From positions 7,109-71,108 of the forward strand of contig JAICOJ010000006.1 of assembly GCA_025930755.1 (NCBI GenBank): a stretch of 64,000 nucleotides of DNA, in the 5' to 3' direction. The DNA is from Gemmatimonadaceae bacterium. Lineage in GTDB: Bacteria > Gemmatimonadota > Gemmatimonadetes > Gemmatimonadales > Gemmatimonadaceae. Under the pieces are notes generated by a model. It did not search any database and was not told where the DNA came from. It saw only the letters and a list, made by a program, of their open reading frames with translations. The stretch's first letter is position 1. The number at the start of each line of letters is the position of its first letter. Positions 3,950-21,604 of this stretch are shown here, piece after piece. The translations under genes and the position numbers were made by a program.

Positions 3950-3988
3950 GACTCCTCGTGAGGCAGGCCAGGGTCGCGTTCGCCACGA

Positions 3989-4708
3989 TCACCGCAGGGG
4001 CGTCGAGCTGCCGTGCGCGAGCTGCAGGAATTCGTCGCGCGTGCGCGCATCCGAGCGAAACGAGCCACGCAGCGCGCTGGTGATCGTCTTCGAGTTCTGC
4101 TTCTCGACGCCGCGCATCATCATGCAGAGATGGTACGCCTCGATCACGACGCCGACGCCGCGCGGCGCGAGCACGTCCTGAATCGCCTGCGCGATCTGCT
4201 CGGTGAGCCGCTCCTGCACCTGGAGGCGGCGCGCGAACACTTCGACGATTCTCGGCAGCTTCGACAGGCCGACGATGTGGCCGTCGGGAATGTACGCGAT
4301 GTGCGCCTTTCCGAAAAAGGGGAGCAGGTGATGCTCGCACATCGAGTACAGCTCGATGTCGCGCACCATGACCATACTCTCGTGCGCTTCCGCGAAGACG
4401 GCGTCGCCGACGACCTCGTCCACCTCGAGCGCGTATCCTCGCGTGAGCCAGGCGAGCGCATTGGCCACGCGTGTCGGAGTACGGAGCAGGCCTTCCCGCG
4501 CCGGATCTTCCCCGATGAGCTCGAGGATGCGGCGCACGAGCGCCTCGAATTCCGCGTTGTGCTCCGGGCCGGGATCGAGATCCAGACCGGCATCGAACTC
4601 GGCGAGCTCGAGCGAGCGCGTGTCGACGCGCCGGTCGCCGGTCACCGCGGGAGTGGGCTTCGCGCGTCGCGCGGTCGCGCGCGCGCGCGAGTTTCGTCGG
4701 TGGGTCAC
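3989..4708 (-). CDS. folE: GTP cyclohydrolase I
   Basis: FolE signature sequences are present: [51 protein letters not shown] and HLCMMMRGV. The track ORF runs to 4813. I place the start at the GTG at 4708, but this is uncertain. Confidence 0.85.
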
Positions 4709-4853
4709 GAAAAGTTCGGCGTGGCGTGTGTTTCGCAAAGGCGTGGCGCTCGATGACGCACGCACGAGGCATCCAGCTTGAGTCGACGGCGGTGCGCCTC
4801 TAACTTGACGCACGTTTCACCGCCGGCATCACCCCTATCTGGATGGCGCACAT

Positions 4854-6083
4854 TTGAAAGTCAAGCTTCTGCTCGCGGCCATCCTGCAGGGCGGATCAGC
4901 CGCGTGGTCCGCGCTGTGGACCTTCCCGAGCATCCTGTTCAGCGCGTTCATGATCGCGTGGGGAGCAGAGGCGGCGCAGTTCATGATTTCGCAGGGGTTG
5001 GCGCTGGCGATTCTCGCATGGTTGCAGACCCTCCCCGAGTTCGCGGTCGAAGCGGTCATCGCATGGGAAGCCGGCAGCGACCCCCTGCAGTGTTTCGTCG
5101 CCGCTCCGCCACCGGGTTGTCATTCCCACCTCGCCATCGCGAACTACACCGGCGCCATCCGTCTGCTGATTGGCCTCGGCTGGCCGATGATCTATTTCGT
5201 CGCCGCGTTCTACCGTCGCAAACAGGGCCGCGCACTCCGCGCGATCCAGCTGGAGGACGAGCACTCGGTCGAAGTGCTCGCCACCGTTCCACCGGTGCTC
5301 TACTTCTTCTGGGTGTGGTACAAGGGCTCACTCGGGCTCGTCGACGCCGGGGTGCTGATCGCCATGTACGTCGGCTATCTCGCCATTCTCTGGCGCTTCC
5401 CACCCCAGGAGCAGGAGAACCTGTCCGATGCGCCGGCACCGGCGCGGTGGGCGTACACGCGCCCGGGGGCCTGGCGGCATGCGGCGATCATCGGCTTCTT
5501 CGCCGTGGGCGGCTTGCTGCTCTACTTCACCGCCCATCCCTTTCTGGACTCCATGCTCGCGCTGGCCCTCTCGATGGGCATCAGCCAGTTCGTGTTCGTG
5601 CAGTGGGTCGCACCATTTCTGAGCGAGTTTCCCGAGAAAGTCTCGGCGTTCGCGTGGGCGCGGCGGGTGACGCACGCGCCGATGGGGCTCATGAACATGC
5701 TGTCGAGCAACGTCAACCAGTGGACGGTGCTCGCGGCGATGATTCCGATCGTGTTCTCCTTTGCGCGGGGCGAGCCGGCCGCGCTGCCGTTCGATGGCGA
5801 GCAGCGGATGGAGATCCTGCTGACCATCATGCAGAGCGTCGTCGCCGTGCTCCTGTTGGCAAACATGCGCTTCGAGTGGTGGAACGCGACGCTGCTGTTC
5901 GTGCTCTGGCTCGTGCAGTTTTTGCGCGCGACGTGGCGGGAGGAGATTACGATTGTCTATGCCGCCTGGGCGGTAGGACTCTTGATCTGGTTCGTGATGC
6001 GACCGCCAGCCGCGCCGAGGGTCTTCTTCCAGATGATGCGACGCCCGCCGCCGACGAAGGCCGCGGAGCCCGCCGTACCATAA
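4854..6083 (+). CDS. Polytopic membrane protein, Na+/Ca2+ exchanger (CaCA)-like
   Basis: The protein has many hydrophobic helices. Two alpha-repeat-like motifs, LQTLPEFAVE and FLSEFPEKV, resemble the GxSxPE motifs of CaCA transporters. Confidence 0.55.
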   Translation: MKVKLLLAAILQGGSAAWSALWTFPSILFSAFMIAWGAEAAQFMISQGLALAILAWLQTLPEFAVEAVIAWEAGSDPLQCFVAAPPPGCHSHLAIANYTGAIRLLIGLGWPMIYFVAAFYRRKQGRALRAIQLEDEHSVEVLATVPPVLYFFWVWYKGSLGLVDAGVLIAMYVGYLAILWRFPPQEQENLSDAPAPARWAYTRPGAWRHAAIIGFFAVGGLLLYFTAHPFLDSMLALALSMGISQFVFVQWVAPFLSEFPEKVSAFAWARRVTHAPMGLMNMLSSNVNQWTVLAAMIPIVFSFARGEPAALPFDGEQRMEILLTIMQSVVAVLLLANMRFEWWNATLLFVLWLVQFLRATWREEITIVYAAWAVGLLIWFVMRPPAAPRVFFQMMRRPPPTKAAEPAVP

Positions 6084-6087
6084 CGCA

Positions 6088-6113
6088 CGAGCCCCGCCTT
6101 TCGGCGGGGCTCG
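6088..6113 (+). terminator. GC-rich stem-loop after the membrane-protein gene
   Basis: cgagccccgcc-tttc-ggcggggctcg forms an 11-bp perfect stem with a 4-nt loop, beginning 5 nt after the TAA at 6081-6083. There is no clear U tract. Confidence 0.5.
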
Positions 6114-6364
6114 CATAGTGGGGAACGAAGAGGATTTTTGAAGCCCATCCGAATGTATGAGGCCCTCACCACACTTCCGCCTTCCCCGCACTGGGGCATG
6201 ACGTCCGCATGGATATCGAACCCACCCGAGTGGACTTGTTGGCTCAAAAATTAGAGCTCTCCGTCCCTTTCGAAACCATCGACGCCGCACCACGCGTTGT
6301 CGCAACAGCACGGTACCGATAGTCACTTGCCAATCTAGAGACGACTCAGAGGCCAGTCAATCAC

Positions 6365-6541
6365 ATGGACGTCTGGATAATCGCCGCCATCGCGATGCTC
6401 GTCGTTTGGGGCGTCGGAACGTTCGCGTTCACGGGACCGGGCTGGATTCACCTGCTGCTCACGGTTGGACTGTCGGTGCTCATCTGGCGCATCGTCGTTC
6501 GCGGGACGCCTGACGAGTCGACGCGCCGCGATCGCCGGTGA
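6365..6541 (+). CDS. Small membrane protein, lmo0937/DUF5670-like (58 aa, below the track cutoff)
   Basis: My hand translation is MDVWIIAAIAMLVVWGVGTFAFTGPGWIHLLLTVGLSVLIWRIVVRGTPDESTRRDRR. It has two TM helices and the GxxIHLLL motif typical of that family. The stop TGA at 6539-6541 overlaps the GTG at 6538 of the next gene. Confidence 0.6.
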   Translation: MDVWIIAAIAMLVVWGVGTFAFTGPGWIHLLLTVGLSVLIWRIVVRGTPDESTRRDRR

Positions 6542-7554
6542 TCGAGCCCGCGGGCGCCGCCTCTCGGCCCGGCACCGCGGTCGCGGAGCAGCCGCAGCCC
6601 CAGCGGCGCCTGCACGGTCAATTCGTGCTCGTGACCGGCGCGGCGGGGTTCGTCGGAGCGCATGTCTGTCGGCACCTGACCGAACGCGGGGCGCGAGTGC
6701 GCGGCCTCGTCCGATCACCGGCGAAGGCAGCGGAACGACTCGCGCCGATGCCGGTGGAGCTTCACGTCGGCGATGTGCGCGATGCGATGGTGATGCAGCG
6801 CGCCCTGCAGGGATGCGATGCGGTCGTCCACCTCGCCGCCATCGCCATCGAGCGGCAGGGGCAAACGTACGAGGATGTCAACGCACGCGGCGCCGAGTGC
6901 GTGCTCGGCGCGATGCAGGCCACGGGCGTTCGACGACTCATCCACATGTCGCAGAACGGCGCGTCGAGCTCGTTGCCGTATCGCTTCCTCCGCAGCAAGG
7001 GACTCGCCGAGGACGCGGTGCGCGCGAGCGGAGCTGATTGGACGACCCTCCGCCCGTCGGTGATCTTCGGGCCCGACGATGAGTTCGTGAACGTGCTCGC
7101 CCGGCTCGTGCGTCTCTCGCCCCTGATCTATCCCCTGCCCGGAGGCGGCACTGCACGCTTCCAGCCGGTCGCGGTCGACGACGTTGCGCACGTCGTCGCC
7201 GCCGCGCTCGCGGAGAGCGACACCATTCGCCACGCCTACGCGCTCGGCGGTCCCGCGCAACTCACGCTTCGGCAGATGGTCGAACGCGTGCTCGTCGCGA
7301 TGGACGCCAAGCGTTTTCTGATTCCAGTGCCGATCGCCGTGCTCAGGCCGCTGATTGCTCTGGCGCAGCGCATTCTGCCGAACCCGCCAGTCACGACCGA
7401 GTTGCTCGATCTGCTCAAGGTCGACAATGTCGTGGAGGGCAATGCCCTCCGCGACGTGTTCGGGATCGTGCCCACGCCGTTCGCGCCCGAGGAACTGGTG
7501 TACCTCGAGGGAATCACTGCGCGGGCGGCGCTGCGGTCGCTTCTGGGCCGCTAG
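6538..7554 (+). CDS. NAD(P)-dependent epimerase/dehydratase-type (atypical SDR) protein
   Basis: The Rossmann motif VLVTGAAGFVGAHVCRHL is present. The overall layout resembles NmrA or complex-I NDUFA9-like SDRs. Confidence 0.8.
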   Translation: MIEPAGAASRPGTAVAEQPQPQRRLHGQFVLVTGAAGFVGAHVCRHLTERGARVRGLVRSPAKAAERLAPMPVELHVGDVRDAMVMQRALQGCDAVVHLAAIAIERQGQTYEDVNARGAECVLGAMQATGVRRLIHMSQNGASSSLPYRFLRSKGLAEDAVRASGADWTTLRPSVIFGPDDEFVNVLARLVRLSPLIYPLPGGGTARFQPVAVDDVAHVVAAALAESDTIRHAYALGGPAQLTLRQMVERVLVAMDAKRFLIPVPIAVLRPLIALAQRILPNPPVTTELLDLLKVDNVVEGNALRDVFGIVPTPFAPEELVYLEGITARAALRSLLGR

Positions 7555-7642
7555 GCGCGGTGCGAGATGTGCCGTGTGGAGACGGAGCGACGCGCGAACG
7601 ATCTGCGATGACGAGGTCGTGCGCTCGCAGCACGGACCACGG

Positions 7643-7990
7643 ATGGCCATGGTGGTTGCCAGCCAGGACGCGAATCTCGACCGGTTGTCGGCGCTCATCG
7701 ACGCGGCGGCCTCTCGCGCGGACGACCGCGTGGCCCTGTTCGATTTCGTCCTCGCGATCGGGGAGCTGTGGGACCGATTGGGGCTGCGCGACCCCTTCGT
7801 CGATGCGCAGCTGAGCGACTCGGACAGCCGCGCCCAGCTCGCGCGGGTCGCGCGCGACGGCGAAGGGGAGCCGGGTCCGGACGTGGAGCGGCTTGCGTTC
7901 TACGCGCTGCGCACACTCGCGGCGTTTCAGACCGTCGTCGAGGGGTGGCGCCGCAGCCCCTCGCTCCGGGCCGCCTGGGTCAGTCGTTAG
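7643..7990 (+). CDS. Hypothetical protein
   Basis: This is the ATG-initiated part of track ORF 7355..7990 with coding-like composition. I recognise no family, and the start is uncertain. Confidence 0.4.
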   Translation: MAMVVASQDANLDRLSALIDAAASRADDRVALFDFVLAIGELWDRLGLRDPFVDAQLSDSDSRAQLARVARDGEGEPGPDVERLAFYALRTLAAFQTVVEGWRRSPSLRAAWVSR

Positions 7991-8538
7991 GTCGCGGCAG
8001 GCGGCGCGTCTTCGTCATACCTCGGGCCGGCGCCGCTGTCCTCGAGCTGGTGCACGTCGGGAGGCTCGTGCGCCTGCCGCTCGCGAAGGGGCGCCGGCTC
8101 ATCGACGACGACCCGCACCTCGATCGCTCCCTCCACTGCGGACCGGGCGTTCGTGTCGTCCCGCAGGCGTTCGACACGCTCGCGGATCGCATCCGCCTGG
8201 TCGGCATCGCGACCCACGAGCAGCAGCCGGTACTGCCCACGCCCCGAGGAGGCGATCAGATCCGATTTCCGAAACTCGTGACACAATCCGAAAGTGAATC
8301 GCCGGCACGAGGCCTCTTCACCCCCCTGAACGAAGATCCGGATCGTCCGCACGCGACCCCCGTGGCGCGCCGCCCTGCGCTCTTCCCAATCGCGGACGAG
8401 ACGGAAGTACAGCACGCTCGGCAGCCCGGTGTTGGGATCCGTCAGCGTGCGCAGGAGCAGGCCGTTCTCGAGCTCGTTGTCGACGGTCATTGGCCTCGGG
8501 GTATCATCGTGCGGCAGCATTTGCATGATGCCTGCCAC
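7987..8538 (-). CDS. Degenerate GGDEF-like domain protein
   Basis: DPNTGLPSVLYF resembles the D.LTGL.NRR start of GGDEF domains. At the position of R.GGDEF the sequence reads SSGRGQYRLLL, so the active-site motif is lost. Confidence 0.45.
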   Translation of the reverse strand: MAGIMQMLPHDDTPRPMTVDNELENGLLLRTLTDPNTGLPSVLYFRLVRDWEERRAARHGGRVRTIRIFVQGGEEASCRRFTFGLCHEFRKSDLIASSGRGQYRLLLVGRDADQADAIRERVERLRDDTNARSAVEGAIEVRVVVDEPAPLRERQAHEPPDVHQLEDSGAGPRYDEDAPPAAT

Positions 8539-8561
8539 ATGGCCTCGCCCGTTAGGTCATC

Positions 8562-9023
8562 GTGTCCGAGGCGATCACTCGAAGAATTTCCGGCACCGGA
8601 ACCATTTGTGATGCGTGTCACACGCAGGCACTAACCCTGCAGAAGGGCCCTTGGCTGTACCCCGAGGAACGGGGTGTGGCGGCACAGGAGACCGCATGCT
8701 GGAGGAAGGCGTTGGCGTACCGTGAATTCGTCGATAACGCGGGAACGATGTGGAGAGTGTGGGACACCTATCCGGTGGCCGCGAATACGCTGCGCACCGT
8801 GTCTCCCAGCTTCGCTGGCGGGTGGCTCACGTTCGAGTCCGACACCGAGCGACGCCGTCTCGCGCCCATCCCCTCAGGCTGGGAGATCGCCACCAGGCAG
8901 CTGATGATCCATTGGTGCGCGCGGGCGTTTCAGGCTCGCCCTCCCGATCACCCTGCCACGGACGCGGCCCGCGGTCAGGGTCAGCTCGGGCCCGGCGCTA
9001 GATCTCCCAGTTCGACCAGATGA
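8562..9023 (+). CDS. Hypothetical protein
   Basis: Composition is coding-like. It has a conserved-looking core, MWRVWDTYP...GGWLTFESDTERRRLAPIPSGWE. The start is uncertain. The 3' end overlaps the convergent GNAT gene. Confidence 0.4.
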   Translation: MSEAITRRISGTGTICDACHTQALTLQKGPWLYPEERGVAAQETACWRKALAYREFVDNAGTMWRVWDTYPVAANTLRTVSPSFAGGWLTFESDTERRRLAPIPSGWEIATRQLMIHWCARAFQARPPDHPATDAARGQGQLGPGARSPSSTR

Positions 9024-9972
9024 CGCCGCGCTGCGGTGGACATTCGGGCGTGTCGGCGAGCGTCATGCGCAGATCCGTCCATCGCACGCGGGCGCCGAGA
9101 TCGATCAGCCGTTGATATGCGCCCAGGAATTCGGTTTGAACGCGAAGCGCAACGCGCCGCGTTCCGCTCCGACGCGCGTAGTCCATCAGCACGTCCGCTA
9201 GCCGCTTGAGATCGTCCTCGCGCTCGAGCGCGAGCTTCAACACGCGCATCTCCTCGCGAACGCGCCCCTCCACCAGCGGCGCGGTGTGGCACAGGGCGAA
9301 CCCAATCAGCCGTCCACGGTCGCGGAGCAGCACCGTGTCGCCGAGCGCCAGCTGATCGGTGAGGACGATCTCCCGAGTGAAGTCGAAGCCGGGGGCGAGG
9401 CCGTTGGTGAGCGCCCGACACTCCTCGATGGCATCGTCCTTGTCGCGTGGGGGGAGCCGCCCGAGAAGACTGGGACCAGTGCCGAGCGAACCCGCTTCGA
9501 GTGTGAGGGTGATCGTCAGGCGACCCGGGACGAAGCCGAGCGCGGAGTAGAAGCCAATGTTGTCCATCGTGCGGGGCATGGTCTCCAGCCCGATCGTGGC
9601 CGCGCGACCCGCGCGCAACCAGTCGACGCCGCCGCGGACGATCTCCTTCCCCAGCCCGACACCTTGCCAGTCGGGGCGGACGGCGAGCGGCCCCATCCAT
9701 CCCTCCACGCCGGAGCGGTGGGCAATGTTGAAGGCGACGATGTCGTCCCGGTCGTCTCGCCACACCAGCGCTCCCCCCCCGGCATCCTCGATCGCGTAAC
9801 GCCAGATCGCCGGATTGAGAAAGGGAACCCGGACGCCAACCATGCCGTCGCGACGATACCGCTCGCTGAATGCGTCGCTGAAGACCTGATTGAGGCCGCC
9901 GATGTCATCCAGGCCCGCGGGCTCGGGACCATCCGCCTGATGATGGGTTCGCCACGTGCGCGCCGTCGCCAT
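8998..9972 (-). CDS. GNAT-family N-acetyltransferase (two-lobed, 324 aa)
   Basis: An acetyl-CoA-binding-type segment is present: VRPDWQGVGLGKEIVRGGVDWL. A second GNAT-like half has LCHTAPLVEG... Its ATG (9972-9970) overlaps the sbcC stop (9974-9972) as ATGA. Confidence 0.75.
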   Translation of the reverse strand: MATARTWRTHHQADGPEPAGLDDIGGLNQVFSDAFSERYRRDGMVGVRVPFLNPAIWRYAIEDAGGGALVWRDDRDDIVAFNIAHRSGVEGWMGPLAVRPDWQGVGLGKEIVRGGVDWLRAGRAATIGLETMPRTMDNIGFYSALGFVPGRLTITLTLEAGSLGTGPSLLGRLPPRDKDDAIEECRALTNGLAPGFDFTREIVLTDQLALGDTVLLRDRGRLIGFALCHTAPLVEGRVREEMRVLKLALEREDDLKRLADVLMDYARRSGTRRVALRVQTEFLGAYQRLIDLGARVRWTDLRMTLADTPECPPQRGVIWSNWEI

Positions 9973-12443
9973 CAGTCGCCGGCCTCCGCCTCCTCGTACA
10001 CCTCATCCCCCACGACCGCTGGCGTAAACAGGTCCGGCAGCTCCGCGGTCTGCTGTTCCACGACCGAGCATCCGGTCTCCTCGTCGTACCGCACCGAGAT
10101 CACGCGATCCACCCCCTCGCGTACCTGCTCGATGTGCGTGATGAGAATGACCTGCTCGAAGCGGCCCTGGAGACGGCGCAGCAAGTCGAGCACGTTGGCG
10201 CGTCGTGCCTCGTCGAGTGAGCCAAAGATCTCGTCGAGGATGAGGAGCGAGAACGGCTGGCCGGCACGTTCGGCGATCATCTGAGAGATCGCGAGGCGCA
10301 GCACGAGGTTCGCCAGGTCCTCCTCGCCGCCGGAGATGACGGGCTTCGGCAGGCCGTCCTCGAGCACGACGATGTTGTAGCTGTCATCGAGCTCGAGCTC
10401 GCCGTAGCGCCCGTCGGTGAGGTCGCTCAGAAAGCCGCTGGCGAGCTCGGAGAGCTCGGGACGCAGCTGGAAGTTGAGATCGGTACGCAGATCGGTGAAC
10501 GCGCGGTCGAGCTCATCGTGAAGCACCTTCCGCTGGGTGAGCTCGCCGAGCATTCGCTGCCGCGAGGCCAGCTCGGCCGCCACCCCGTGCGCGCGCTCGA
10601 GCGCAGTGTGGGCACTGGCCTCCTCTCCCCGCGCCTGCACCAGTGCCAGCTCGGCCGCGTGCGCCTCGGCTGTCGCGCGCTCGTATTCGGTGCGCAGCGC
10701 TTCATGCTCCGATTCGCGGATCGTCGTCTCGTCGCGCCGGCCCTGCAGCACCGTGAGCCGTTGGCGAATCGACGCGAGCCGCTCCGCCGCGGCGGCACGC
10801 TCGCGCTCGACCTGCGGAACCCGCTCGAGCTGTGCACTGAGCCGCGCCGCGCGCGCATCGAGCGGCGTGAGACGCTCGAGCTCACCGCGGAGGAACTCGT
10901 GCCGCGCCGCATCGTACCCGGGGGGAATCGCCGTGAGCTCCGCGTTTACCTGGGCCGCGCGCTCGTCCTTGCCGGCCAGATCGGACTCGACGTGCGCGAG
11001 CTCCTGCACGGCGAGCTGCACCTTCGTCAGGCGACGCTCCAGCGTCGACACTTCCAGCGACATCGCGCGCCGCTGCTCGTCGAGGGCCTGCACATCCTCG
11101 GGCATCTCCATGAGCTGCTCGAAGCGCGCCTTGTAGTAGTTCCCATCGACGCGCACGGTCTCGATCTGCTCATCGAGAAGATCGAGGACCGCACGATAGG
11201 TGTCACCGAGCGGCCGGGCGCAGGTGGGGCACGCGCCCTCGGCGCCAAGGCTCACGATGCGGTCGCGCTGCTCCTTGAGCTCCGTGTACTGCTCGCGCAG
11301 CGATTGCCGCTTCGTCTCCGCCTCCTGCCGGTCGCGCACCCACTCGGTGCGCCTCGCCTCGAGGAGGCCGTCGGTCGCCTCGAAGTCGGCGCGCTTGGCG
11401 ACGAGCGCGGCATCGATCTCCGTTTCGAGCGTCGGTGCGTTCTCGAGCTTCGCGCGACGATCACGCAGACGGACGAGATCCTCCGCGAGCGCGGCTTGCG
11501 TCTCGAGGAGCGCGCGCCGCCGCCCCTCTTCCCGCGCGAGGACATCGAGACGCTGGAATTCCGATGCCAGCAGGGCGAACGGCTCGAGCTCGCGCCGCAG
11601 CTGGTCCAGCTCGGCACGCGCACTGGCGGCGTCGGCGAGATCGCGCTCCAGCCGCTGCACCTCGCGATGTTCGGCGGCCTCCTCCTGCTCCGCGACGCGC
11701 AGGTCGGCGAGCAAGGCCTGATGTGCCTCGCGAGCGCGCTGTGCTGCTTCCCATCGTGGCCGCACCTCGTCGAGCGCGGTTTGCGTCGCGTCGCGACGAC
11801 GCTGGGCGAAGCGGGCACGATCGCGAGCTTGTTCCAGCCGCGTTTCGGTCTCGGCCACCTGACGGGCCACGGCCTCGGGGTCGCCCATCCCCTGCTTCAG
11901 CCCCGCCATCTCGGCGACGATGGCGCGGCGCCGGTCGCGCGCGATTTCCTGCGCCGCACGCAGCCGCTCGTAGCCCAGCACGCGCGAGAGGAACTGTGCG
12001 CGCTCCGTCGGGCTCATCGCGGCCATCACGCTGATCTCTTTCTGGCCGGTGAAATACGTGTTGAAGAACTCCTCGCGCGTCATGCCGAGCCGGCGCGTGA
12101 GGACGTCCGTCACCCCGGTGATCGAGTCGGCGATCTTGTTTTGAGCGCCATCGAGGTAGAGCTCGGCGTTCGTCAGGCCGCGAACGACCCGGTAATTATG
12201 GCCGCCGAGATCGAAGTCGAGCTCGACGCGCACTCCCGAGCGCGCACCAGCGCGGTTGAAGCGAATGGAGTCGCGCGTGCCTCGAGCGGCGGGGTTTCCA
12301 TAGATCGCCCACGCGATCGCCTCGAGGATGGTCGTCTTTCCGGCGCCATTGGGCCCGATGATGCCCGTGACCCCCGGACCGAACTCCACCCGGCTGTCCG
12401 CGTGCTGGCGGAAGTTCTGGAGGACGACCCGGTTGAGCTGCAC
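9972..12443 (-). CDS. sbcC: SbcC/Rad50-family SMC-like ATPase
   Basis: It has Walker A GPNGAGKTTILEAI, long coiled coils, a zinc hook GACPTCARPL, a signature motif SGGEEDLANLVLRLAI and Walker B LLILDEIFGSLD. Confidence 0.9.
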   Translation of the reverse strand: MQLNRVVLQNFRQHADSRVEFGPGVTGIIGPNGAGKTTILEAIAWAIYGNPAARGTRDSIRFNRAGARSGVRVELDFDLGGHNYRVVRGLTNAELYLDGAQNKIADSITGVTDVLTRRLGMTREEFFNTYFTGQKEISVMAAMSPTERAQFLSRVLGYERLRAAQEIARDRRRAIVAEMAGLKQGMGDPEAVARQVAETETRLEQARDRARFAQRRRDATQTALDEVRPRWEAAQRAREAHQALLADLRVAEQEEAAEHREVQRLERDLADAASARAELDQLRRELEPFALLASEFQRLDVLAREEGRRRALLETQAALAEDLVRLRDRRAKLENAPTLETEIDAALVAKRADFEATDGLLEARRTEWVRDRQEAETKRQSLREQYTELKEQRDRIVSLGAEGACPTCARPLGDTYRAVLDLLDEQIETVRVDGNYYKARFEQLMEMPEDVQALDEQRRAMSLEVSTLERRLTKVQLAVQELAHVESDLAGKDERAAQVNAELTAIPPGYDAARHEFLRGELERLTPLDARAARLSAQLERVPQVERERAAAAERLASIRQRLTVLQGRRDETTIRESEHEALRTEYERATAEAHAAELALVQARGEEASAHTALERAHGVAAELASRQRMLGELTQRKVLHDELDRAFTDLRTDLNFQLRPELSELASGFLSDLTDGRYGELELDDSYNIVVLEDGLPKPVISGGEEDLANLVLRLAISQMIAERAGQPFSLLILDEIFGSLDEARRANVLDLLRRLQGRFEQVILITHIEQVREGVDRVISVRYDEETGCSVVEQQTAELPDLFTPAVVGDEVYEEAEAGD

Positions 12444-13643
12444 CTAGCCGCCGAGTGTGGGTGGAGACCCCGCGGACGCAACGCTCGCGGCCGCATCGGC
12501 TTCCTGCAAATAAAACGTCCCGAGCTGCACGAGCGCGTCACGATCGACACCCGGAGCGAGCGTGCGCTTGCCGATGTACGACTCGACCGTCTCGCGAAGC
12601 GTCGGACGACGGCCCGGTGCGCCGCTCGCGGCGAGACGCATCATCTCCGGACGCCGGGCGTCGAGGTGGAAGTGGAGCGCGCGCCGCTTGTAGTCGCGCA
12701 ATGCTTTCTGGTCCAGTTCCCGCGCGACGTGTCGTGGGATGTCCCGCACGACGAGGCGCACGATCTTCTCGTCGATCCCGTCCTCGCACTTCTCGACCGC
12801 ATCGCGAATGGCGCTGTCGAGCTCGGAGGCCGTGAGCCCGCGCGCAGGAACCGCGGGCAGGTCGACGAGCCGGCGCGACGGGTCGAGCGGGTGGAAGGTA
12901 TGGACGCCCCGCTCGAGGTCGAACTCGATAAAGCCCTTCCCGGGCAGTCCTCCCACTTTTTCCTCGATCAGCTCGCCCCAGGGATTCGTGCTCGTGTAGT
13001 CGACGGAGCCGGAGTAGTACATGTTCGGCGCGATCTGCCGGTGCACGTGGTAGTGCCCCAGCGCCACGTAGCTCCACCGCGGAGCGCCGATCGCGTCGAG
13101 CGGGATTTCCATCGCCGCACGGTCCGCCCGCACGGCCTCCGCCGGCAGCATGCCCTGCACTTCCCCGTGCAGCAGCAGCACGTTGTGCCTAACGCCCGGC
13201 TCCGGGAGCAGCGCGGGATAATCACCGAGGCAGTCGGGAACGGCGAGGATGGCCAGGTCGCGCTCGGGAAACGTCAGGCGACGAGGCTCCGAATCGACGA
13301 CGTGAACCCCCAGCACGGTGAACAAGCGCAGGATGCAGCCCGTCTCGGTCGCCCGCGGACGGTCATGGTTCCCCGCCACCATGACGACGATCGCCTGCGG
13401 CACCGCCCGGGTCAGTCGAGCCAGCTGGTTGAACGCGTGGATGATCGCCGGGTTCATCGGGCGAACGGTGTGGAAAATATCCCCCGCGAACACGACGACG
13501 TCGGGCTCGAGGGCGATGATCCGGTCGATCGCGCTCCGAAAGGCGTTCGCGACGTCCGCTTCGCGCTGATTGATTCCGGATTGCGTCAGGCGGTGGTACT
13601 GACGGAAACCGAGATGCAGGTCGGAGATGTGAACCAGGCGCAC
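12444..13643 (-). CDS. sbcD: SbcD/Mre11-family nuclease
   Basis: The calcineurin-like phosphoesterase motifs are present: ISDLHLG, FAGDIFH, AGNHD, LLLHGEV and ALGHYH. A GAGGA sequence lies 5 nt upstream of the GTG start. The stop directly abuts the sbcC start. Confidence 0.9.
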   Translation of the reverse strand: MRLVHISDLHLGFRQYHRLTQSGINQREADVANAFRSAIDRIIALEPDVVVFAGDIFHTVRPMNPAIIHAFNQLARLTRAVPQAIVVMVAGNHDRPRATETGCILRLFTVLGVHVVDSEPRRLTFPERDLAILAVPDCLGDYPALLPEPGVRHNVLLLHGEVQGMLPAEAVRADRAAMEIPLDAIGAPRWSYVALGHYHVHRQIAPNMYYSGSVDYTSTNPWGELIEEKVGGLPGKGFIEFDLERGVHTFHPLDPSRRLVDLPAVPARGLTASELDSAIRDAVEKCEDGIDEKIVRLVVRDIPRHVARELDQKALRDYKRRALHFHLDARRPEMMRLAASGAPGRRPTLRETVESYIGKRTLAPGVDRDALVQLGTFYLQEADAAASVASAGSPPTLGG

Positions 13644-13701
13644 GCCGTCCTCGGGGAAAATTCGGCTAACTGTAATACTCCTAAGAGGATAGCGTGTGCG
13701 C

Positions 13702-14547
13702 TCACCGCTTGTCCATAGTGCGTTGCCGCTGCAGCAGGCGCATCTGCATCTTCACCGGCTGGAGGCCGCTTCCGGGGGGCTGGGCGATGTGCGAGCGCAT
13801 GGACATTTCGGTCGAGGCGTCAGTAACCCACCCCCGGCCGCGGTCGAGAACCATGTAACCGGTGACCGTCCCACTCATCGTCATGCGCGCCCCACCGCGA
13901 ATCGGGGCTGCCGTCGAATCCCGTGTGACGGTGCCGCGCATCGAGATGTGGGCAAGCTTCCCGCGGCGCGTGAGCGAGTCGAGCCGGAAGGTGGCCTCGA
14001 GCGTTCCGGCAACCTGGCCCGGGCCTGTGTCGGGAATGGGGATGCGCTGCTTCCACGTGCTGCCGATCGCAACCGCCTGGCGTGGGAACGTGGCCGGGAG
14101 CTGCGAGAAGACCGATTGAAGGTCGCGCGGGATGTCCGGGTCCGCCTCGATCACGATTCCCGAGCCCTCGCGCGAGAAGCGGACGCGAACCTCCTTCCCC
14201 TGCAGCGATCGGCGCGCCTGATCACTGAGCGTCGCGACGCGCGGGTCGATCGCACCCATGTCCACCGCTACCGAATCGGTAATCGATCGCACCGTCGTGC
14301 CCTCGTTGTCCGACTCGATCACGATGGACCGGGACAGCATGAGCATGGACGAGCGCATGGTGATCGTCGTGTCGGCATCGCGAACCTTGCCGACGCCCGA
14401 GATCTCCATTTCCTGCTCGATGCGGAGCCGCAGCGTGTCGCCGACCTTGGGCTTGATCTGCAGCAGCACGCTCTGCGCGTGCGCGCCCGGAGCGATCGAG
14501 GCGACGAGCGCGACCAAGGCGGTGACGCGCCTCACGAGGGTGAGCAT
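13702..14547 (-). CDS. Hypothetical exported protein
   Basis: The N-terminal signal peptide is MLTLVRRVTALVALVASIAPGAHA-QS. Composition is beta-rich and GC3 is good. The start lies 3 nt after the herA stop. Confidence 0.6.
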   Translation of the reverse strand: MLTLVRRVTALVALVASIAPGAHAQSVLLQIKPKVGDTLRLRIEQEMEISGVGKVRDADTTITMRSSMLMLSRSIVIESDNEGTTVRSITDSVAVDMGAIDPRVATLSDQARRSLQGKEVRVRFSREGSGIVIEADPDIPRDLQSVFSQLPATFPRQAVAIGSTWKQRIPIPDTGPGQVAGTLEATFRLDSLTRRGKLAHISMRGTVTRDSTAAPIRGGARMTMSGTVTGYMVLDRGRGWVTDASTEMSMRSHIAQPPGSGLQPVKMQMRLLQRQRTMDKR

Positions 14548-14550
14548 GCG

Positions 14551-16515
14551 CTACACGCCGTAGGGATCGTCGGCCGGCAGCCCACGAAGGGGCGTGGCGG
14601 CAACGGGTGCCTGAGCGGGCTGCGCCGGGATGATCGTGCGGAGTCTCGAGGCAAAAAAGCCCCTCACATCCTTGGGACGCGCCTGAAGCGTCGCGTTGCG
14701 CGCACGAATGAGGTCGCCCTCATCGTACAGAGCGACCATGTCCTGCACCCAGGCCAGCGGCACCCCGGGATCGAGCTGGCGCAGCGTTCGCAGCAGCGAT
14801 GCCTCGAGCGTGCTGTCGGTCGCCTGCGGGAATCGCTCGACACCATCGCGACCCCGAAGCACGGCCGGGCGCGGAAACTTCAGGAAAATCGGCTGCGTGA
14901 AGTGCGGATGACGCACCATCAAGTCTCCCTTGGCGAGCGTAGCCAGCTTCGTCCTCGTTGCCGGGCTGAGCACGGCGTAGCCAGGCGTGGCCAGCTCGTC
15001 TCCATCCATGCGTCCGAACAAGGACGTCCCGCTATTGCCGACGACGCGGCGATGGACCTGGGACCGGAACTGTTGCGCGCCGAACAGCACCAGCCCGAGA
15101 TACCGTCCACGCTCGGCGATATCGAGCAGCATCTTCCGCACGTAGGTGTCGGGGCCATCGGCCGGGGCGTATTTGTTCAGCTCGTCGACGAACACCACGA
15201 CGTGGCTGACGCCGAGATCACGCCGCTCGAGGTGTTCACGAAGCTTGGACACGATGCGCGCGAAGATGAGATCCTGCGCGTCCTCCTCGGCGGCGGCGAC
15301 GTCAATCACATACACCGTGCGATCCTCGAAGGTCCCCCACGGCAGGTCGCTCACGGAGCCGTCATCGGTGACGAGACCGGCACATCGCAGCGAAATGTTG
15401 GAGAGCCGGTTGCGTACCTTGCGGATGGTCGCGATGTGGTGCGTTTTGTACCCCTCGCTCCCCTTCCCCTCGAGCATGAGGATGATGTCGCGGAACCAGC
15501 GCTCGAGGTCGGCGAAGGATTGCACCCGGTAGACCTGCCCCGGCAGCAGCTGCGGATCCTTGTACTCCCGGTCGAGCACCCGCTCCTTGATGAAATCGAT
15601 GAGCGCGTCCGCCTTCGCGTCCACGTCGTCTCGATTGAGCAGCACTTCGGCGAACTGAAGCACTTCGCGAAGCCCCCAGGTGAGGGGGCTGACGTTGTGC
15701 ATCAGCGCCTCATTCGAGCGCAAGGTGTTCAGTGACGTGAGGTTCGCCTTGTAGGGGGCGAAGTACTGCACTCGATCGAACGGGCGAGGGGGGACGGCGA
15801 GCCGGTGGTACATCGCCAGGTCGTTGGCGTCGAGATCGCCCGGCTGGTCGAGATAGCAGAGGTCAGGGCCCTTGACGTTGAAGCACACCGCGGCCACGGA
15901 GCCTTTGCTCGCCGGGAAATGCGCGAACAGCGACGCGAGAATGAACTCGACGGCGCTCGTCTTCGTCGCCAGTCCCGACACGCCGGTGATGTTGAGATGC
16001 GCCGCCTCGGGGCCGACGAGAAAGTCGGCGTCGAGATAGATCGGGGAGTCCATGCCGCCGGCGCGGTACAGGCCGATGGGGATGGCCGTCCGCGTCTCGG
16101 GTCGCGTGTAGGTGTCCATGCGCAGCGCGAGCGTCACGTCCTCGTCGCTGGCGAGGAAGACTTCGCCCATGGGCACGGGTTGCAGGGGCTCCTCCGGAAT
16201 TTGTCGAAGGACCGCCGCGGTGTAGAGGCGCACCTCCGGCCGCTCGGTCGGGGCGATCGCGGAAGAGCGCGGATCGCCGTCATGACCGAGCACATCATGC
16301 AGCGGCGAGAGCAAGTCGGTGAAGCTGAATCCTTCGACGACGACACCGTACACGCGGGGAATGTGCCCTTCGACGGCGTGCGTCCCCTCGACGCGCACGA
16401 TGGTGCCGATCCCGATCGGCGAGTCGACCGCGGTCCAGAAATGGAACTCGTGAGGCGTGTTGGGCTTGCGTTCAGTCGCGACGACGCGGCCGAGCGGTGA
16501 AGTCTGTTCAGGCAT
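14551..16515 (-). CDS. herA: HerA-like (FtsK/HerA superfamily, DUF87-type) ATPase
   Basis: The N-terminal barrel-like region is GRVVATERKPNTPHEFHFW...GTIVRVEG. The P-loop region reads NITGVSGLATKTSAV, and a Walker B-like motif reads HVVVFVDELNKYAP. Size is 654 aa, and the gene is next to a NurA-like gene. Confidence 0.75.
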   Translation of the reverse strand: MPEQTSPLGRVVATERKPNTPHEFHFWTAVDSPIGIGTIVRVEGTHAVEGHIPRVYGVVVEGFSFTDLLSPLHDVLGHDGDPRSSAIAPTERPEVRLYTAAVLRQIPEEPLQPVPMGEVFLASDEDVTLALRMDTYTRPETRTAIPIGLYRAGGMDSPIYLDADFLVGPEAAHLNITGVSGLATKTSAVEFILASLFAHFPASKGSVAAVCFNVKGPDLCYLDQPGDLDANDLAMYHRLAVPPRPFDRVQYFAPYKANLTSLNTLRSNEALMHNVSPLTWGLREVLQFAEVLLNRDDVDAKADALIDFIKERVLDREYKDPQLLPGQVYRVQSFADLERWFRDIILMLEGKGSEGYKTHHIATIRKVRNRLSNISLRCAGLVTDDGSVSDLPWGTFEDRTVYVIDVAAAEEDAQDLIFARIVSKLREHLERRDLGVSHVVVFVDELNKYAPADGPDTYVRKMLLDIAERGRYLGLVLFGAQQFRSQVHRRVVGNSGTSLFGRMDGDELATPGYAVLSPATRTKLATLAKGDLMVRHPHFTQPIFLKFPRPAVLRGRDGVERFPQATDSTLEASLLRTLRQLDPGVPLAWVQDMVALYDEGDLIRARNATLQARPKDVRGFFASRLRTIIPAQPAQAPVAATPLRGLPADDPYGV

Positions 16516-16531
16516 TCAACTCTCTGTGCTC

Positions 16532-16632
16532 AACGGCAAAGAGGACAGAATCCAGAACATAGCATAGAGAATACAGAAGTGTCGTTGCTGAATTCTGCAT
16601 TCCGTATTCTGAATTCTGTCCTCTTTGCCGTT
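16532..16632. repeat. Long palindromic element (CAGAAT-type family, copy A) between nurA and herA
   Basis: The outer clamp aacggcaaagaggacagaat pairs with attctgtcctctttgccgtt (20 perfect bp), followed by imperfect arms of cagaat-like units. It starts 3 nt after the nurA stop (16635-16637) and ends 17 nt before the herA start (16515). Confidence 0.8.
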
Positions 16633-16634
16633 TC

Positions 16635-17633
16635 TCAGGAAATGGCACGCAGGAACTCTTCACACTCCCGCACGGGATACGCCATACGGTCCCACCGGGA
16701 ATCCGGGAGCGCCAGTGGTGCGCGCTCGGCGAGCACCCACCGCGAGACTTCATCCGCGCGCGCCGAGGCATCCTCGGTCTCCGCGACCTCGACACGCACG
16801 ATCCCCCAGAGCGCGTCGTGCGCCACGCCATCGCGCAGGCGCAGGTACCAGGAGTGCACGGGCGTCCGATTGCGCGGGGCGATCCGTACCACGGGCGTAC
16901 GCTCGCCGCACGCCAACCCGAGAATCACGTCCAGGAGCGCCGCCGACGCGTAGAGCTGACGGTGGGATTTCACGATTCCTACCGCGCAGCTGTGCGTCCC
17001 GACGATTTCGCTGGCCGAGATGCTGCCGTCTACCAGCAGTGGCTCACGCATCGTCTCGCACCACTGCTCGGCCAGGGTGCGCTCGGCGCGCTCGCGGTCG
17101 CGCTGCACGGCGTGCAGCGCTTGCTCCGTCACGTGGGCAGGATGCCGGGAGAGGACTCCGTCGTCGTCCGCCCGTGACGTGTCGACGAGGTCAAGGCCGC
17201 CGAGGCTGTGGCGTGTTTCCGCGTCGAGCGCCGAGAGGGGCGCATAGATACGACACTCGACGATCGGATGCTGCCATGTCGTGAGGCGCCGATCCACTCG
17301 GCGCTTGACGACGGCGGAGACGCGGCCCCAGACAATGGGAATTCCTCGCGAGAGCGTTACCACTCGGCTCTCCTGGATGCCATCGAGAAAGGCACTGAAC
17401 GCGGGCGCCGGCGACCCCGGTACAGGGCGCGCCACCGTTGCATTCTCAACGCGTTGCGCGTCTATGACCCGGGGTGCCTCATGAACACCCTCGAGCCGCT
17501 CGAGCGTGGGTGCCGTGCTGGTGACGGTGGCGACGCCGGGCACGCGATGCGCGAGGATGCGCACCGCGTCGTGGAAAGTTGCCACGGGTATGGAGGGGGG
17601 GTAGGTTGCCCGCTGCCTCTGCTCCACTGCCAC
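16635..17633 (-). CDS. nurA: NurA-like nuclease
   Basis: An LLVDGSI motif followed by IVKSHRQLY is typical of NurA, and the gene is adjacent to herA. The track ORF runs to 17912 but would overlap the divergent lipoprotein gene. I chose the GTG at 17633, and the start remains uncertain. Confidence 0.6.
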   Translation of the reverse strand: MAVEQRQRATYPPSIPVATFHDAVRILAHRVPGVATVTSTAPTLERLEGVHEAPRVIDAQRVENATVARPVPGSPAPAFSAFLDGIQESRVVTLSRGIPIVWGRVSAVVKRRVDRRLTTWQHPIVECRIYAPLSALDAETRHSLGGLDLVDTSRADDDGVLSRHPAHVTEQALHAVQRDRERAERTLAEQWCETMREPLLVDGSISASEIVGTHSCAVGIVKSHRQLYASAALLDVILGLACGERTPVVRIAPRNRTPVHSWYLRLRDGVAHDALWGIVRVEVAETEDASARADEVSRWVLAERAPLALPDSRWDRMAYPVRECEEFLRAIS

Positions 17634-17670
17634 CGTCTCAGGTCCCGCCGATCGGCCGCCTTCGGCAGCC

Positions 17671-18678
17671 GTGCTCTCGTCTACCTTCCGCGAGTTGATG
17701 CGCGCGTTCGTCATCCAGCGAGTCGCCACGCTGGTGACCATCGTAACGGTGGTTACCGGGTGTGACAAGGCGAAAGGATTCATTGGCGGAGATCGACCGG
17801 CGCCCCCGGAGATCGCGCCCGGCGAGGCCCTCAATCTCGCCGCGCGTCCCCACATCCTCTTCCAGATCTTCGGTGAGAAGGAAGATCCGCGGATGATTCC
17901 CATCGCCGCCATCGAAGACGGGCAGCTGAAGGCGATCGCGCTCTCGTCGACGGGTTGGCGTCAGTTCGACGCGATGTACCTCCGGGGGGGCAAGACCTAC
18001 AAGCTCTACCAGGACGGCCGCACGCGAGGCGCGGTGACGGTCCGGCAAGGCATGTGGGAGCGCCCCGAGAACCCGCTCTACACCCTTCCAGGGTGCCAGG
18101 CGCTCACGCCGCTGGCGAGCGTCACCGTCACGGGGATGACCAAGTCCTCGTACACCGTCGAGGCACTCGCGTCCTCGTTCGATCGCTCGGCTCCGCGCTC
18201 CGCGAGGCCTCTCCCCGATGCGGAGTTGGCGCGCACCGGGCGCAAGATCGCCATCGAAGCGGGCGCTCCGGAAAGCGTGGACGGGAAGATGCTCGACGCC
18301 CTCGACTTCCGCGCGGTCGCGATCAACACCGGCGCCACCGACTCCCCGACGATCGTCGCGTCGTACATCGATCCGACCGCCACCGACGCGGGCTCGGCGA
18401 CCGCCAACACCGTTCACCTCTTCGTCATCGCGGACCGCGACGTCGATGGCTATACGCCGACGATGTCCCATGTGGTGAACGGCCCGATCGCCGGTGCGGT
18501 GTACCGGCGCTTCTTCGATCATTTGGATCTCACCGGCGACGGCATCGACGAAATCGTGGCCGAGGAGTGGCGAATCGGCCAGGAGACGTCGCTGCTTGTA
18601 TTCGCCTGGATGAACGGGAGATGGAGGGAAGTGTTCCGGGGACGGTCGAGCTGGTGCCTCGACGAGGTGAGGCGATAG
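17671..18678 (+). CDS. Hypothetical lipoprotein
   Basis: The signal peptide and lipobox read VATLVTIVTVVTGC-D. GC3 is good. An alternative ATG start is at 17698. Confidence 0.6.
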   Translation: MLSSTFRELMRAFVIQRVATLVTIVTVVTGCDKAKGFIGGDRPAPPEIAPGEALNLAARPHILFQIFGEKEDPRMIPIAAIEDGQLKAIALSSTGWRQFDAMYLRGGKTYKLYQDGRTRGAVTVRQGMWERPENPLYTLPGCQALTPLASVTVTGMTKSSYTVEALASSFDRSAPRSARPLPDAELARTGRKIAIEAGAPESVDGKMLDALDFRAVAINTGATDSPTIVASYIDPTATDAGSATANTVHLFVIADRDVDGYTPTMSHVVNGPIAGAVYRRFFDHLDLTGDGIDEIVAEEWRIGQETSLLVFAWMNGRWREVFRGRSSWCLDEVRR

Positions 18679-18694
18679 GCGAACGGCGTTTCCG

Positions 18695-18814
18695 AACGGC
18701 AAGGATGACAGAACTCGGAATACAGAATTTCAGATAAGTCTACGGGGAGCCAGGGTCGTGGCTCCCCGTGGTCGTTTCTGAATTCTGCATTCTGTATTCT
18801 GAATTGTCGCCGTT
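18695..18814. repeat. Long palindromic element (CAGAAT-type, copy B) between convergent genes
   Basis: Arms aacggcaaggatgacagaactcggaatacagaatttcaga and tctgaattctgcattctgtattctgaattgtcgccgtt flank a nested GC hairpin at 18742-18769 (acggggagcc-agggtcgt-ggctccccgt). The right end overlaps the TAA at 18813-18815 of the methyltransferase gene. Confidence 0.8.
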
Positions 18815-20386: not shown

Positions 20387-21604
20387 TCAGCGGCTCATCT
20401 CGCGCCAGAGGCTCACGAGGCGTCGCGTCCCCTCGACGACCGCGTCGATCGGTGCCGCGTACGACATGCGCACCCATCCCGGCGTGAGGAACGCGGACCC
20501 CGGGACGACGGCAACCTCATGGCTCTCGAGGAGCCGCTGTGCGAACCGCGCTCCGTCATCGCGCTCCGGGTCGTCGGATCCCACACGTGCGAACAGATAG
20601 AACGCGCCTTCGGGCTCGACGATCTCCAGACCGGGTTCCGCGCGCACGACCTCGACCACGGCATCACGCCGCCGCCGAAACTCCGCCACCATCTTTCTCA
20701 CCGAATCATCCGCCGCCTCACGATTCGTGAGCGCGGCAAGGGCGGCGTGCTGCGATGGTGCGGCCGCGTTCGAGGTCGTGTGTGACTGAAACGCGGTCAT
20801 CGCGGCCGACAGCTCGCGCGGGGCGATCGCCCACCCGATTCGCCACCCGGTCATCGCGTAGGCCTTGGCGACGCCGTCGATCAGCACGAGGCGATCGAGC
20901 GACGGGGCAACCTCGAGTGCCGATGCCGCCGGCTCGGTCCCGTATGCGATCGCGCGATAGATCTCATCGCTGATCACCCACCAACCGTGCTCATGCGCGC
21001 ACTCGAGCAGCGCCGCGAGCTCATCGCGCGAATACACCGCACCCGTGGGATTGCACGGGGAGTTCAGCATCACCCCGCGGGTTCGGCCCGTCGACGCGGC
21101 CTCGAGCATTGATGGGGTGACCTTGAGGCCGGCGCCCGCATCGCCGGGTACGGGAACGGCAGTCGCTCGCGCCAGCGTGACCATCTCGTAGTAGCTCGTC
21201 CAGCTGGGCGTGGGGATGAGCACCTCGTCCCCTTCACCGAAAAGACAGAAGCAGGCGTTGAACAGCGATTGCTTCGAGCCCGTCGACACGACCACCTGCC
21301 CCGGCGTGACCTCGACACCCATGTGACCTGCTCGGCGCACGATCGCTTCGCGGAGGGGAAGGATGCCCTCCGTCGCCGTGTATCGCGTGGCTCCGGCGTC
21401 GATCGCGCTCTGCGCCGCTCGACGGATGAACTCGGGGGTGTCGAAGTCGGGCTCGCCGGCGCCCAGGTCGATGACCGGACGTCCCGCGGCACGAAGCGCC
21501 TTGGCTCGCGCCGACACCGCGATGGTCGCGGACTCGCGGAGCTGGGCGATGTTCCCGGAAGGGGCGAAGGCGCGATTGCTGCGAGGTCCGGCGAGCAACG
21601 ACAT
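20387..21604 (-). CDS. Pyridoxal-phosphate-dependent aminotransferase (aspartate/aromatic class I)
   Basis: Supporting sequences are GEPDFDTP, NSPCNPTGAVY and DGVAKAYAMTGWRIGW (PLP lysine region). This is only the 3' third of the 1207-aa track ORF. The ATG is at 21604. Confidence 0.9.
   Translation of the reverse strand: MSLLAGPRSNRAFAPSGNIAQLRESATIAVSARAKALRAAGRPVIDLGAGEPDFDTPEFIRRAAQSAIDAGATRYTATEGILPLREAIVRRAGHMGVEVTPGQVVVSTGSKQSLFNACFCLFGEGDEVLIPTPSWTSYYEMVTLARATAVPVPGDAGAGLKVTPSMLEAASTGRTRGVMLNSPCNPTGAVYSRDELAALLECAHEHGWWVISDEIYRAIAYGTEPAASALEVAPSLDRLVLIDGVAKAYAMTGWRIGWAIAPRELSAAMTAFQSHTTSNAAAPSQHAALAALTNREAADDSVRKMVAEFRRRRDAVVEVVRAEPGLEIVEPEGAFYLFARVGSDDPERDDGARFAQRLLESHEVAVVPGSAFLTPGWVRMSYAAPIDAVVEGTRRLVSLWREMSR

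Follow-up and report, generated by a model that had tools for sequence, protein, structure and literature searches.

In thermophilic archaea such as Sulfolobus and Pyrococcus, the herA-mre11-rad50-nurA operon and the cooperation proposed for its products are established (PMC2288612, PMC3326311). In the bacterium Deinococcus radiodurans, HerA-NurA has been shown structurally to thread and degrade DNA (PMC9960219; PDB 7F6D/7WRW), and there the pair does not lie beside sbcCD (PMC4663267). A 2026 study described bacterial herA-nurA as confined to Deinococcus-Thermus and treated the D. radiodurans HerA-NurA as acting without Mre11-Rad50 (PMC12977600). Blesa et al. (2017) remarked on sbcD-sbcC located 3' of hepA (herA) in Oceanithermus profundus, and read this as an archaeal-like architecture for double-strand-break repair (PMC5448004). 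The literature appears not to have picked up how widespread such linkage is in bacteria. Here, we describe a string of six co-oriented minus-strand genes, nurA-herA-X-sbcD-sbcC-GNAT, at positions 8998-17633 of a 64,000-nucleotide stretch of contig JAICOJ010000006.1 from a Gemmatimonadaceae bacterium (assembly GCA_025930755.1), hereafter the window. We consider it likely that this cluster serves chromosomal double-strand-break end processing.

Like the archaeal operon, the string brings together the same four functions in contiguous, co-oriented genes, here with X between herA and mre11 (sbcD), and its Mre11 and Rad50 (the sbcD and sbcC products) score best against archaeal structures and NCBIfam Rad50 models. 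It differs in its order, nurA-herA-X-mre11-rad50 rather than herA-mre11-rad50-nurA, in having HerA and NurA of the D. radiodurans type that are missed by Pfam models, in the insertion of a gene for an exported protein and the appending of a GNAT acetyltransferase gene, and in its host, which belongs to a lineage of mesophilic soil bacteria as opposed to thermophilic archaea. The arrangement in O. profundus, nurA-hepA-sbcD-sbcC, shares the position of sbcD-sbcC directly 3' of a bacterial herA; unlike the data presented here, it is a remark on a single genome of the Thermales, known to us from the paper, in which neither GNAT nor DUF6263 is mentioned.

The gene order is a conserved feature of the phylum among the genomes sampled. 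A scan of species-representative genomes with a HerA alignment returned 80 loci, exclusively from Gemmatimonadota, with HerA identities of 62-98% to the window protein, and the six window proteins were compared with these loci by tblastn. Counts are given over loci with room, those in which the contig is long enough for the gene in question to be visible. Both this sample and the 80 metagenomic loci discussed below were chosen for having HerA, and the counts describe HerA carriers and not the share of genomes that have the cluster. NurA is encoded 5' of herA on the same strand in 71 of 72 loci, SbcD 3' of herA in 74 of 74, SbcC after SbcD in 66 of 66, and the GNAT protein after SbcC in 54 of 55, the exception being one Longimicrobiales metagenome-assembled genome (MAG). 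An earlier sequence-only reading of the window had suggested looking for the linkage in related genomes, and the order is indeed kept across the 80 species loci; the six-gene arrangement is far beyond what chance would give. HerA identity declines with taxonomic distance from 98% to 62%, through Gemmatimonadaceae, then Gemmatimonadales, then Longimicrobiales, a gradient that fits vertical descent. A farmland metagenome contig in ENA encodes a HerA protein identical to that of the window in the same gene order. Junctions are conserved as well: sbcD and sbcC overlap in 47 of 66 loci and lie within 20 nt of each other in all 66, and nurA and herA overlap by 4 nt in 33 of 76.

One position in the string is variable. 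Gene X (13702-14547, minus strand, 281 amino acids) encodes a protein that matches PF19777 (DUF6263) over residues 143-241 (E 2.3e-10, 40.9 bits against a cutoff of 26.7). The protein is predicted to be exported: its signal peptide ends at AHA/Q (residues 22-25), and signal peptides or lipoboxes are kept in its orthologues. A single-sequence AlphaFold2 model of X reached a pLDDT of only 41.7, and we found no literature on DUF6263. A DUF6263 gene lies between herA and sbcD in 46 of the 74 Gemmatimonadota loci with room, including most Gemmatimonadaceae. The slot is empty in about 20 loci, and elsewhere holds an AlkZ-like DNA glycosylase gene (two loci), a PAS-histidine kinase gene (one) or an alcohol dehydrogenase cassette (one). 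The two AlkZ-like genes, in Gemmatimonadales loci L054 (12805-14655) and L056 (16396-17538), match PF06224 with E-values of 1e-37 to 1e-40 and place a DNA-repair gene exactly where the window has the exported protein. X had been noted as one of two unexpected passengers in the apparent operon; it is a variable occupant of an insertion-prone slot and no fixed member of the string, and the exported DUF6263 protein is probably a passenger. We therefore describe the cluster as a pair of coupled modules, nurA-herA and mre11-rad50-GNAT, that meet at a seam tolerant of insertions.

One interpretation of this seam is that it marks a real operon boundary, with X and the other inserts lying between independent nurA-herA and sbcDC-GNAT operons whose products do not cooperate and whose proximity is neutral. 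The herA-sbcD junction is the sole loose junction of the string, ranging from 11 nt to 6.3 kb, and the genes that fill it are unrelated from one lineage to another. Immediately 5' of sbcD there is a promoter-like match (13715-13686; a second is found at 17768-17740), D. radiodurans and Thermus carry the two pairs apart from each other (PMC4663267, PMC5448004), and near outgroups lack the linkage. We nevertheless consider this interpretation quite unlikely, given that herA and sbcD are no more than 150 nt apart in about 18 Gemmatimonadota loci and that several phyla show the same linkage, with different lineages of SbcC/Rad50 and with the genes in two different orders.

Evidence from outside Gemmatimonadota came from contig look-ups, tblastn against plasmid records and one metagenome scan. 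The order nurA-herA-sbcD-sbcC was found in two genomes of 4.5-5 Mb (one HerA cluster is labelled as a 'Desulfurellaceae' MAG), in Dehalococcoidia, and on another metagenomic contig with a small variable insert ahead of sbcD. Complete nurA-herA-sbcD-sbcC clusters are also present on two plasmids, the conjugative cyanobacterial plasmid AP018315.1 of Sphaerospermopsis and plasmid NZ_CP128402.1 of Candidatus Chlorohelix allophototropha (Chloroflexota). Nonomuraea gerenzanensis (NZ_LT559118.1, 9001-15399) has the archaeal order herA-sbcD-sbcC-nurA, in an 11.85 Mb record that is listed in PLSDB as 'plasmid I' and is evidently the chromosome. A metagenome scan seeded with Dehalococcoidia-type HerAs yielded 80 diverse loci at 38-62% identity. 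In these, sbcD directly follows herA in 67 of the 72 loci with room, at a median gap of 87 nt; 28 loci have the nurA-first order and 17 of the 80 the archaeal order (for example L115, L118, L134, L135, L151, L158, L173 and L175). Neither a GNAT nor a DUF6263 gene was found in any of these 80 loci. Several other HerA loci have nurA-herA, or herA alone, without sbcCD.

The partner SbcC differs from cluster to cluster. It is of the E. coli type on the cyanobacterial plasmid, where the best match is E. coli SbcC (PDB 6s6v, E 1.4e-36), Thermotoga-like in locus L082, and archaeal-like in the window; either the linkage is ancient and its members have diverged, or SbcC has been recruited more than once. 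That the four genes are found together again outside Gemmatimonadota, in either of two orders and alongside distinct SbcC/Rad50 lineages, suggests that selection has acted on the linkage itself. The four-gene combination had been thought unusual for a bacterium; the metagenomic counts and the precedent in O. profundus (PMC5448004) do not bear this out, and across the sampled loci, which span several bacterial phyla, adjacency to mre11-rad50 is the usual state for D. radiodurans-type HerA.

All six gene identities proposed from the sequence alone proved correct, including those of NurA and HerA, for which standard profile libraries gave no help. The HerA protein (14551-16515, minus strand, 654 amino acids) matched no Pfam or NCBIfam model, even at thresholds of E<=10 or E<=1, and the NurA protein (16635-17633, minus strand, 332 amino acids, GTG start) likewise matched none, including PF09376 (NurA), which gave merely a 'weak' match in the NurA orthologues of L082 and of a Dehalococcoidia cluster (L085). 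The sequence-only reading had named failure in profile searches as an argument against these two assignments. That failure did occur, and both proteins match the D. radiodurans complex; the lack of hits appears to be a gap in library coverage and not evidence against homology. HerA alone matches D. radiodurans HerA (7f6d_B) by phmmer at E 2.3e-43 in two stretches (residues 4-286 and 398-575), and a 27-sequence HerA family profile reaches E 2.7e-126. The same profile is far weaker against a 592-amino-acid 'DNA helicase' (9x1l, 1.4e-14), HerAs of defence complexes (1e-7 to 1e-4) and Sulfolobus SsoHerA (4d2i, 1.8e-4). The ATPase motifs of the window HerA are intact: a Walker A, GVSGLATKTS at 178-187, in which G178, G181, K185, T186 and S187 are invariant in the family, and a Walker B, VDELN at 443-447, in which D444 and E445 are invariant. 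The family-wide Walker A form, GxSGxATKTS, is deviant and invariant. By these sequence affinities, the protein is of the DrHerA type and would be a hexameric ATPase/translocase.

NurA as a single sequence matches D. radiodurans NurA (7f6d_H) by phmmer at E 3.5e-5, and a profile of 18 orthologues matches it at E 1.3e-23 over positions 28-301 and Thermotoga TM1739 (1zup) at 3.8e-6. D84-G85, D202-G203 and E282 are invariant across the 18 orthologues; in the alignment, D84, D202 and E282 fall on the VDG, QDG and RLE of D. radiodurans NurA, which makes them candidates for an RNase H-like active site. The nurA product is thus assigned, by homology, as a bacterial Deinococcus-type NurA nuclease. The D. 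radiodurans pair, which also has the GxSGxATKTS Walker A and the nurA-then-herA order, provides the closest characterised homologues, at an identity of only about 30%. The D. radiodurans-type HerA family as a whole, including thousands of metagenomic proteins with GxSGxATKTS, goes undetected by any Pfam or NCBIfam model, and the precomputed Pfam field reads '-' for all HerA homologues listed. The NurA partners of this family obtain a weak Pfam NurA match at best. Most of the HerA proteins come without a source name or under the label 'hypothetical protein' or 'ATP-binding protein'; some JGI entries are called 'DNA helicase HerA-like ATPase'. A different pairing of the same ATPase family was seen at L093 (5821-8471), where the gene for a HerA homologue (46% identity) lacks a NurA gene on its 5' side and is followed by one for SSB.

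The identities of the other two core proteins are supported by profiles, motifs and structures. SbcD (12444-13643, minus strand, 399 amino acids) matches PF00149 (E 9e-11), TIGR00619 sbcd (79.4 bits against a cutoff of 77.65) and Mre11_Sulfo (72.5 bits). Its phosphoesterase motifs are all present (DLH at 8-10, GDIFH at 54-58, GNHD at 91-94, H159 and GHYH at 196-199), and its best PDB matches are the Mre11 proteins of Methanocaldococcus jannaschii and Pyrococcus furiosus. SbcC (9972-12443, minus strand, 823 amino acids) contains the Pfam domains SMC_N (3-788), AAA_23 and SbcC_Walker_B (704-756), together with a Walker A at 30-38, a CPTC zinc hook at 405-408, the signature SGGE at 704-707, a Walker B LILDE at 734-738 and an ITH H-loop at 768-770. 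From these domains and motifs, it has the split ABC-ATPase head with a central CxxC zinc hook. In NCBIfam it scores highest with archaeal Rad50 PRK03918 (218.8 bits, cutoff 700), and TIGR00618 sbcc scored 98.1 against 478.5; because it reaches neither the archaeal Rad50 nor the bacterial sbcc equivalog cutoff, we regard it as a member of the superfamily that is an equivalog of neither reference set. Its best PDB matches are archaeal Rad50 proteins, and E. coli SbcC (6s6v) is absent from its PDB matches at E<=1e-8. The window proteins share with E. coli SbcCD the Mre11/Rad50 superfamily, the order of nuclease gene then ATPase gene, and the coupled start and stop. They differ in that the window Rad50 is 823 amino acids long, compared to 1048 in E. 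coli, and by sequence the Mre11/Rad50 pair is closer to its archaeal counterparts than to E. coli SbcCD.

The last gene of the string (8998-9972, minus strand, 324 amino acids) encodes a protein that matches PF00583 (E 9e-13, 49 bits against a cutoff of 20.7). Its AlphaFold2 model, with a pLDDT of 88.8, adopts a tandem-GNAT fold, and the top Foldseek matches, 3tt2, 3ddd (from PH), MAB_4324, VipF and MshD, are all tandem GNATs. The protein resembles these in its predicted two-domain fold and in carrying the acetyl-CoA-binding motif in one of the two domains, here an invariant QGVGLG at 103-108. Identity to them is just 10-17%, and none of them has been reported beside rad50 or sbcC; a literature search for an SbcCD-GNAT operon found nothing relevant. 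In Gemmatimonadota, sbcC and the GNAT gene overlap in 48 of 57 loci and are no more than 20 nt apart in 56 of 57, a spacing comparable to that of sbcD and sbcC, so that the coupling between the GNAT gene and rad50 is no looser than that between rad50 and mre11. In the Dehalococcoidia cluster L085, the position of the Gemmatimonadota GNAT gene, right after sbcC, is occupied by a gene for a 392-amino-acid SMC_N/AAA_15/AAA_23 ATPase (14598-15776).

A far-reaching interpretation of this coupling is that in Gemmatimonadales the tandem GNAT is an integral fifth part of an Mre11-Rad50/HerA-NurA end-resection machine, made in stoichiometry with Rad50 by translational coupling and controlling resection by acetylation. 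The GNAT target would then be one of the four core proteins or a DNA-end-binding partner, and the DUF6263 protein of the slot might provide a link to envelope-associated DNA traffic. We regard this as speculative and improbable; if true, it would mean that double-strand-break processing in these bacteria is gated by acetylation.

We favor end processing as the function of the cluster because of the sequence affinities of its products, their intact motifs, the housekeeping neighbours of the string (genes for GTP cyclohydrolase I, glycine dehydrogenase and acyl-CoA synthetase), the absence of a compositional anomaly in a window with a GC content of about 67% throughout, a synteny kept across the sampled Gemmatimonadota with identity that tracks taxonomy, and the recurrence of the linkage. 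By homology to the D. radiodurans complex, the products of the first module would assemble as a NurA dimer with a HerA hexamer docked on it, a complex that would thread DNA ends and degrade them. In the second module, Mre11-Rad50 would recognise, open or clean DNA ends, and the tandem GNAT, presumably coupled to rad50 in translation, would be a Gemmatimonadales-specific addition with no substrate assigned. We infer that the two modules cooperate physically and functionally, in a sequence borrowed from the archaeal operon: Mre11-Rad50 would prepare the end, HerA-NurA would carry out longer resection, and the product would serve as a substrate for RecA.

Several observations weigh against this interpretation. 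There is no obvious rationale for an exported protein in a DNA-repair string, and the slot it occupies can part the two halves of the cluster by up to 6 kb. In two near outgroups, whose HerA is 45-48% identical, nurA-herA occurs with no sbcCD beside it, and the linkage is thus not obligatory. A 2026 structural study of HerA-NurA from Thermococcus kodakarensis found production of a 3' tail hard to explain and suggested other roles, including defence (PMC12977600). Some of the four-gene clusters are plasmid-borne, and the one on the Chlorohelix plasmid has a defence-island-like setting, flanked by genes for Swt1-HEPN, TIR, Ser/Thr kinase and ImmA/IrrE proteins and by transposases. Finally, one HerA homologue with 32% identity (locus L088) lies in a methyltransferase-rich, defence-like context.

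The last of these observations would also fit the alternative, raised in the sequence-only reading, that the cluster is a nuclease/ATPase-based defence module. Mre11-Rad50 and HerA-NurA would then degrade unprotected ends of linear DNA from phages or plasmids in the manner of RecBCD, or the cluster would have a dual role in repair and defence. HerA-family ATPases are core components of the Sir2-HerA and HerA-DUF4297 anti-phage systems (PMC11472057, PMC11514289, PMC11291478), which like the window string combine a hexameric ATPase of this family with a nuclease or effector, and a defence role has been proposed for archaeal HerA-NurA (PMC12977600). PADLOC matched the window HerA to mad8 (2e-9) and Rad50 to mad3 and LmuB (about 1e-34). 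The plasmid clusters, on a conjugative element in the cyanobacterium and beside TIR, HEPN and ImmA/IrrE genes in Chlorohelix, and the homologue that lies among methyltransferases and an AAA_15 ATPase, would be in keeping with such a role. However, the PADLOC matches reflect generic similarity of ATPase heads; NurA, X and the GNAT protein gave no match, and no complete system was matched in the window. The effectors of the known systems are Sir2 and DUF4297, and their HerAs are distant in sequence, the family profile being far nearer to D. radiodurans HerA. The housekeeping context and a synteny kept in the 80 sampled Gemmatimonadota loci, with identity that tracks taxonomy, are unlike the patchy distribution of defence islands. 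A defence function for the window cluster is accordingly less likely than end processing, and we consider it unlikely overall. As a separate observation, the L088 string (2531-11960 in the locus, GCA_041918515.1) consists of genes for an MmeI/Eco57I-like methyltransferase, an AAA_15/AAA_21 ATPase, two proteins of no assigned function, HerA and an N6_N4 methyltransferase. It contains no sbcCD and may represent a defence system linked to methylation, with a HerA of the D. radiodurans-type family as one of its components.

At the level of the DNA, the six open reading frames are all present where the sequence-only reading had placed them, with the codon-position GC content typical of coding sequence and a GC content at third codon positions (GC3) of 0.79-0.87. 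The near-gapless packing described there also holds. The herA stop lies 3 nt from the start of X, and X is separated by 58 nt from sbcD, whose GTG start is preceded at 6 nt by GAGGA, a Shine-Dalgarno-like sequence (13650-13660, minus strand) read directly from the sequence as ccccGAGGAcggcGTG. The sbcD stop directly abuts the GTG start of sbcC, and a spacer of 119 nt separates nurA from herA. At the junction of sbcC and the GNAT gene, the overlap had been given as ATGA and is in fact TGATG, with 1 nt shared. It is plausible that the six genes form a single operon and are transcribed together.

We place nurA as the first gene of the string, since its upstream neighbour is a divergent plus-strand gene at 17698-18678 (GC3 0.85) that encodes a lipoprotein-like protein beginning MRAFVIQRVATLVTIVTVVTGC... 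with no Pfam match. About 25 of the Gemmatimonadota loci likewise have a homologue of this protein encoded divergently on the 5' side of nurA. Two other gene models were rejected: a longer open reading frame for nurA (16635-17912), given that the lipoprotein gene is the true upstream neighbour, and a minus-strand open reading frame at 17638-18702 (GC3 0.63) as an upstream member of the operon, which is spurious, the coding signature lying in the plus-strand frame.

The nurA-herA spacer is filled by a palindromic repeat of about 100 nt (16532-16632) with termini AACGGCAAAGA...TCTTTGCCGTT. The long hairpin noted there by the sequence-only reading is real and very stable, with a minimum free energy as RNA of -60.6 kcal/mol and a z-score of -8.2; as a part of the string it does not hold up, being a dispersed repeat that is absent from most relatives. 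Three copies, all intergenic, occur in the window (16532-16632, 52961-53054 and about 18698-18800). They are about 95-100 nt long, have internal CAGAAT-like units, resemble repetitive extragenic palindromes (REP) or miniature inverted-repeat transposable elements (MITE), and have no match in Rfam. An exact search for the terminal motif in 92 loci matched only the contig identical to the window (L001); by alignment, a slightly diverged copy is present in a locus with 98% identity (L002), and in other relatives the two genes either overlap by 4 nt or are separated by an unrelated spacer. The hairpin is a REP/MITE-like insertion and not a conserved regulatory part of the cluster, although in this strain it may influence how stable the mRNA is or how strongly nurA and herA are expressed relative to each other. 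Its interpretation as an operon-specific attenuator or terminator was rejected on the same grounds. Different, unrelated repeats or palindromes occupy the nurA-herA spacer in two other Gemmatimonadaceae (L003, 9845-10010, and L012, 2063-2163), and small structured elements seem to have inserted into this spacer repeatedly. Scans of the window for Rfam families and for tRNAs returned nothing. Elsewhere in the window, a minus-strand gene at 20387-24010 encodes a 1207-amino-acid protein in which Pfam recognises only a class I/II aminotransferase domain at the C-terminus (residues 845-1187), leaving the N-terminal residues, about 840, without a Pfam match.

The cluster extends a known system and corrects a bias of the literature toward model organisms; it overturns no paradigm and brings no surprise at the level of mechanism. 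What appears to be new is the conservation of the arrangement across the sampled Gemmatimonadota, the tandem GNAT coupled to rad50, and the insertion-prone seam with its exported DUF6263 protein. The rad50-coupled tandem GNAT provides a specific and testable new lead. The occurrence of the linkage in multiple phyla, in two orders and with different Rad50/SbcC lineages, strengthens the case that Mre11-Rad50 and HerA-NurA cooperate, and culturable Gemmatimonas species could serve as bacterial models for a question that is still unsettled in archaea.

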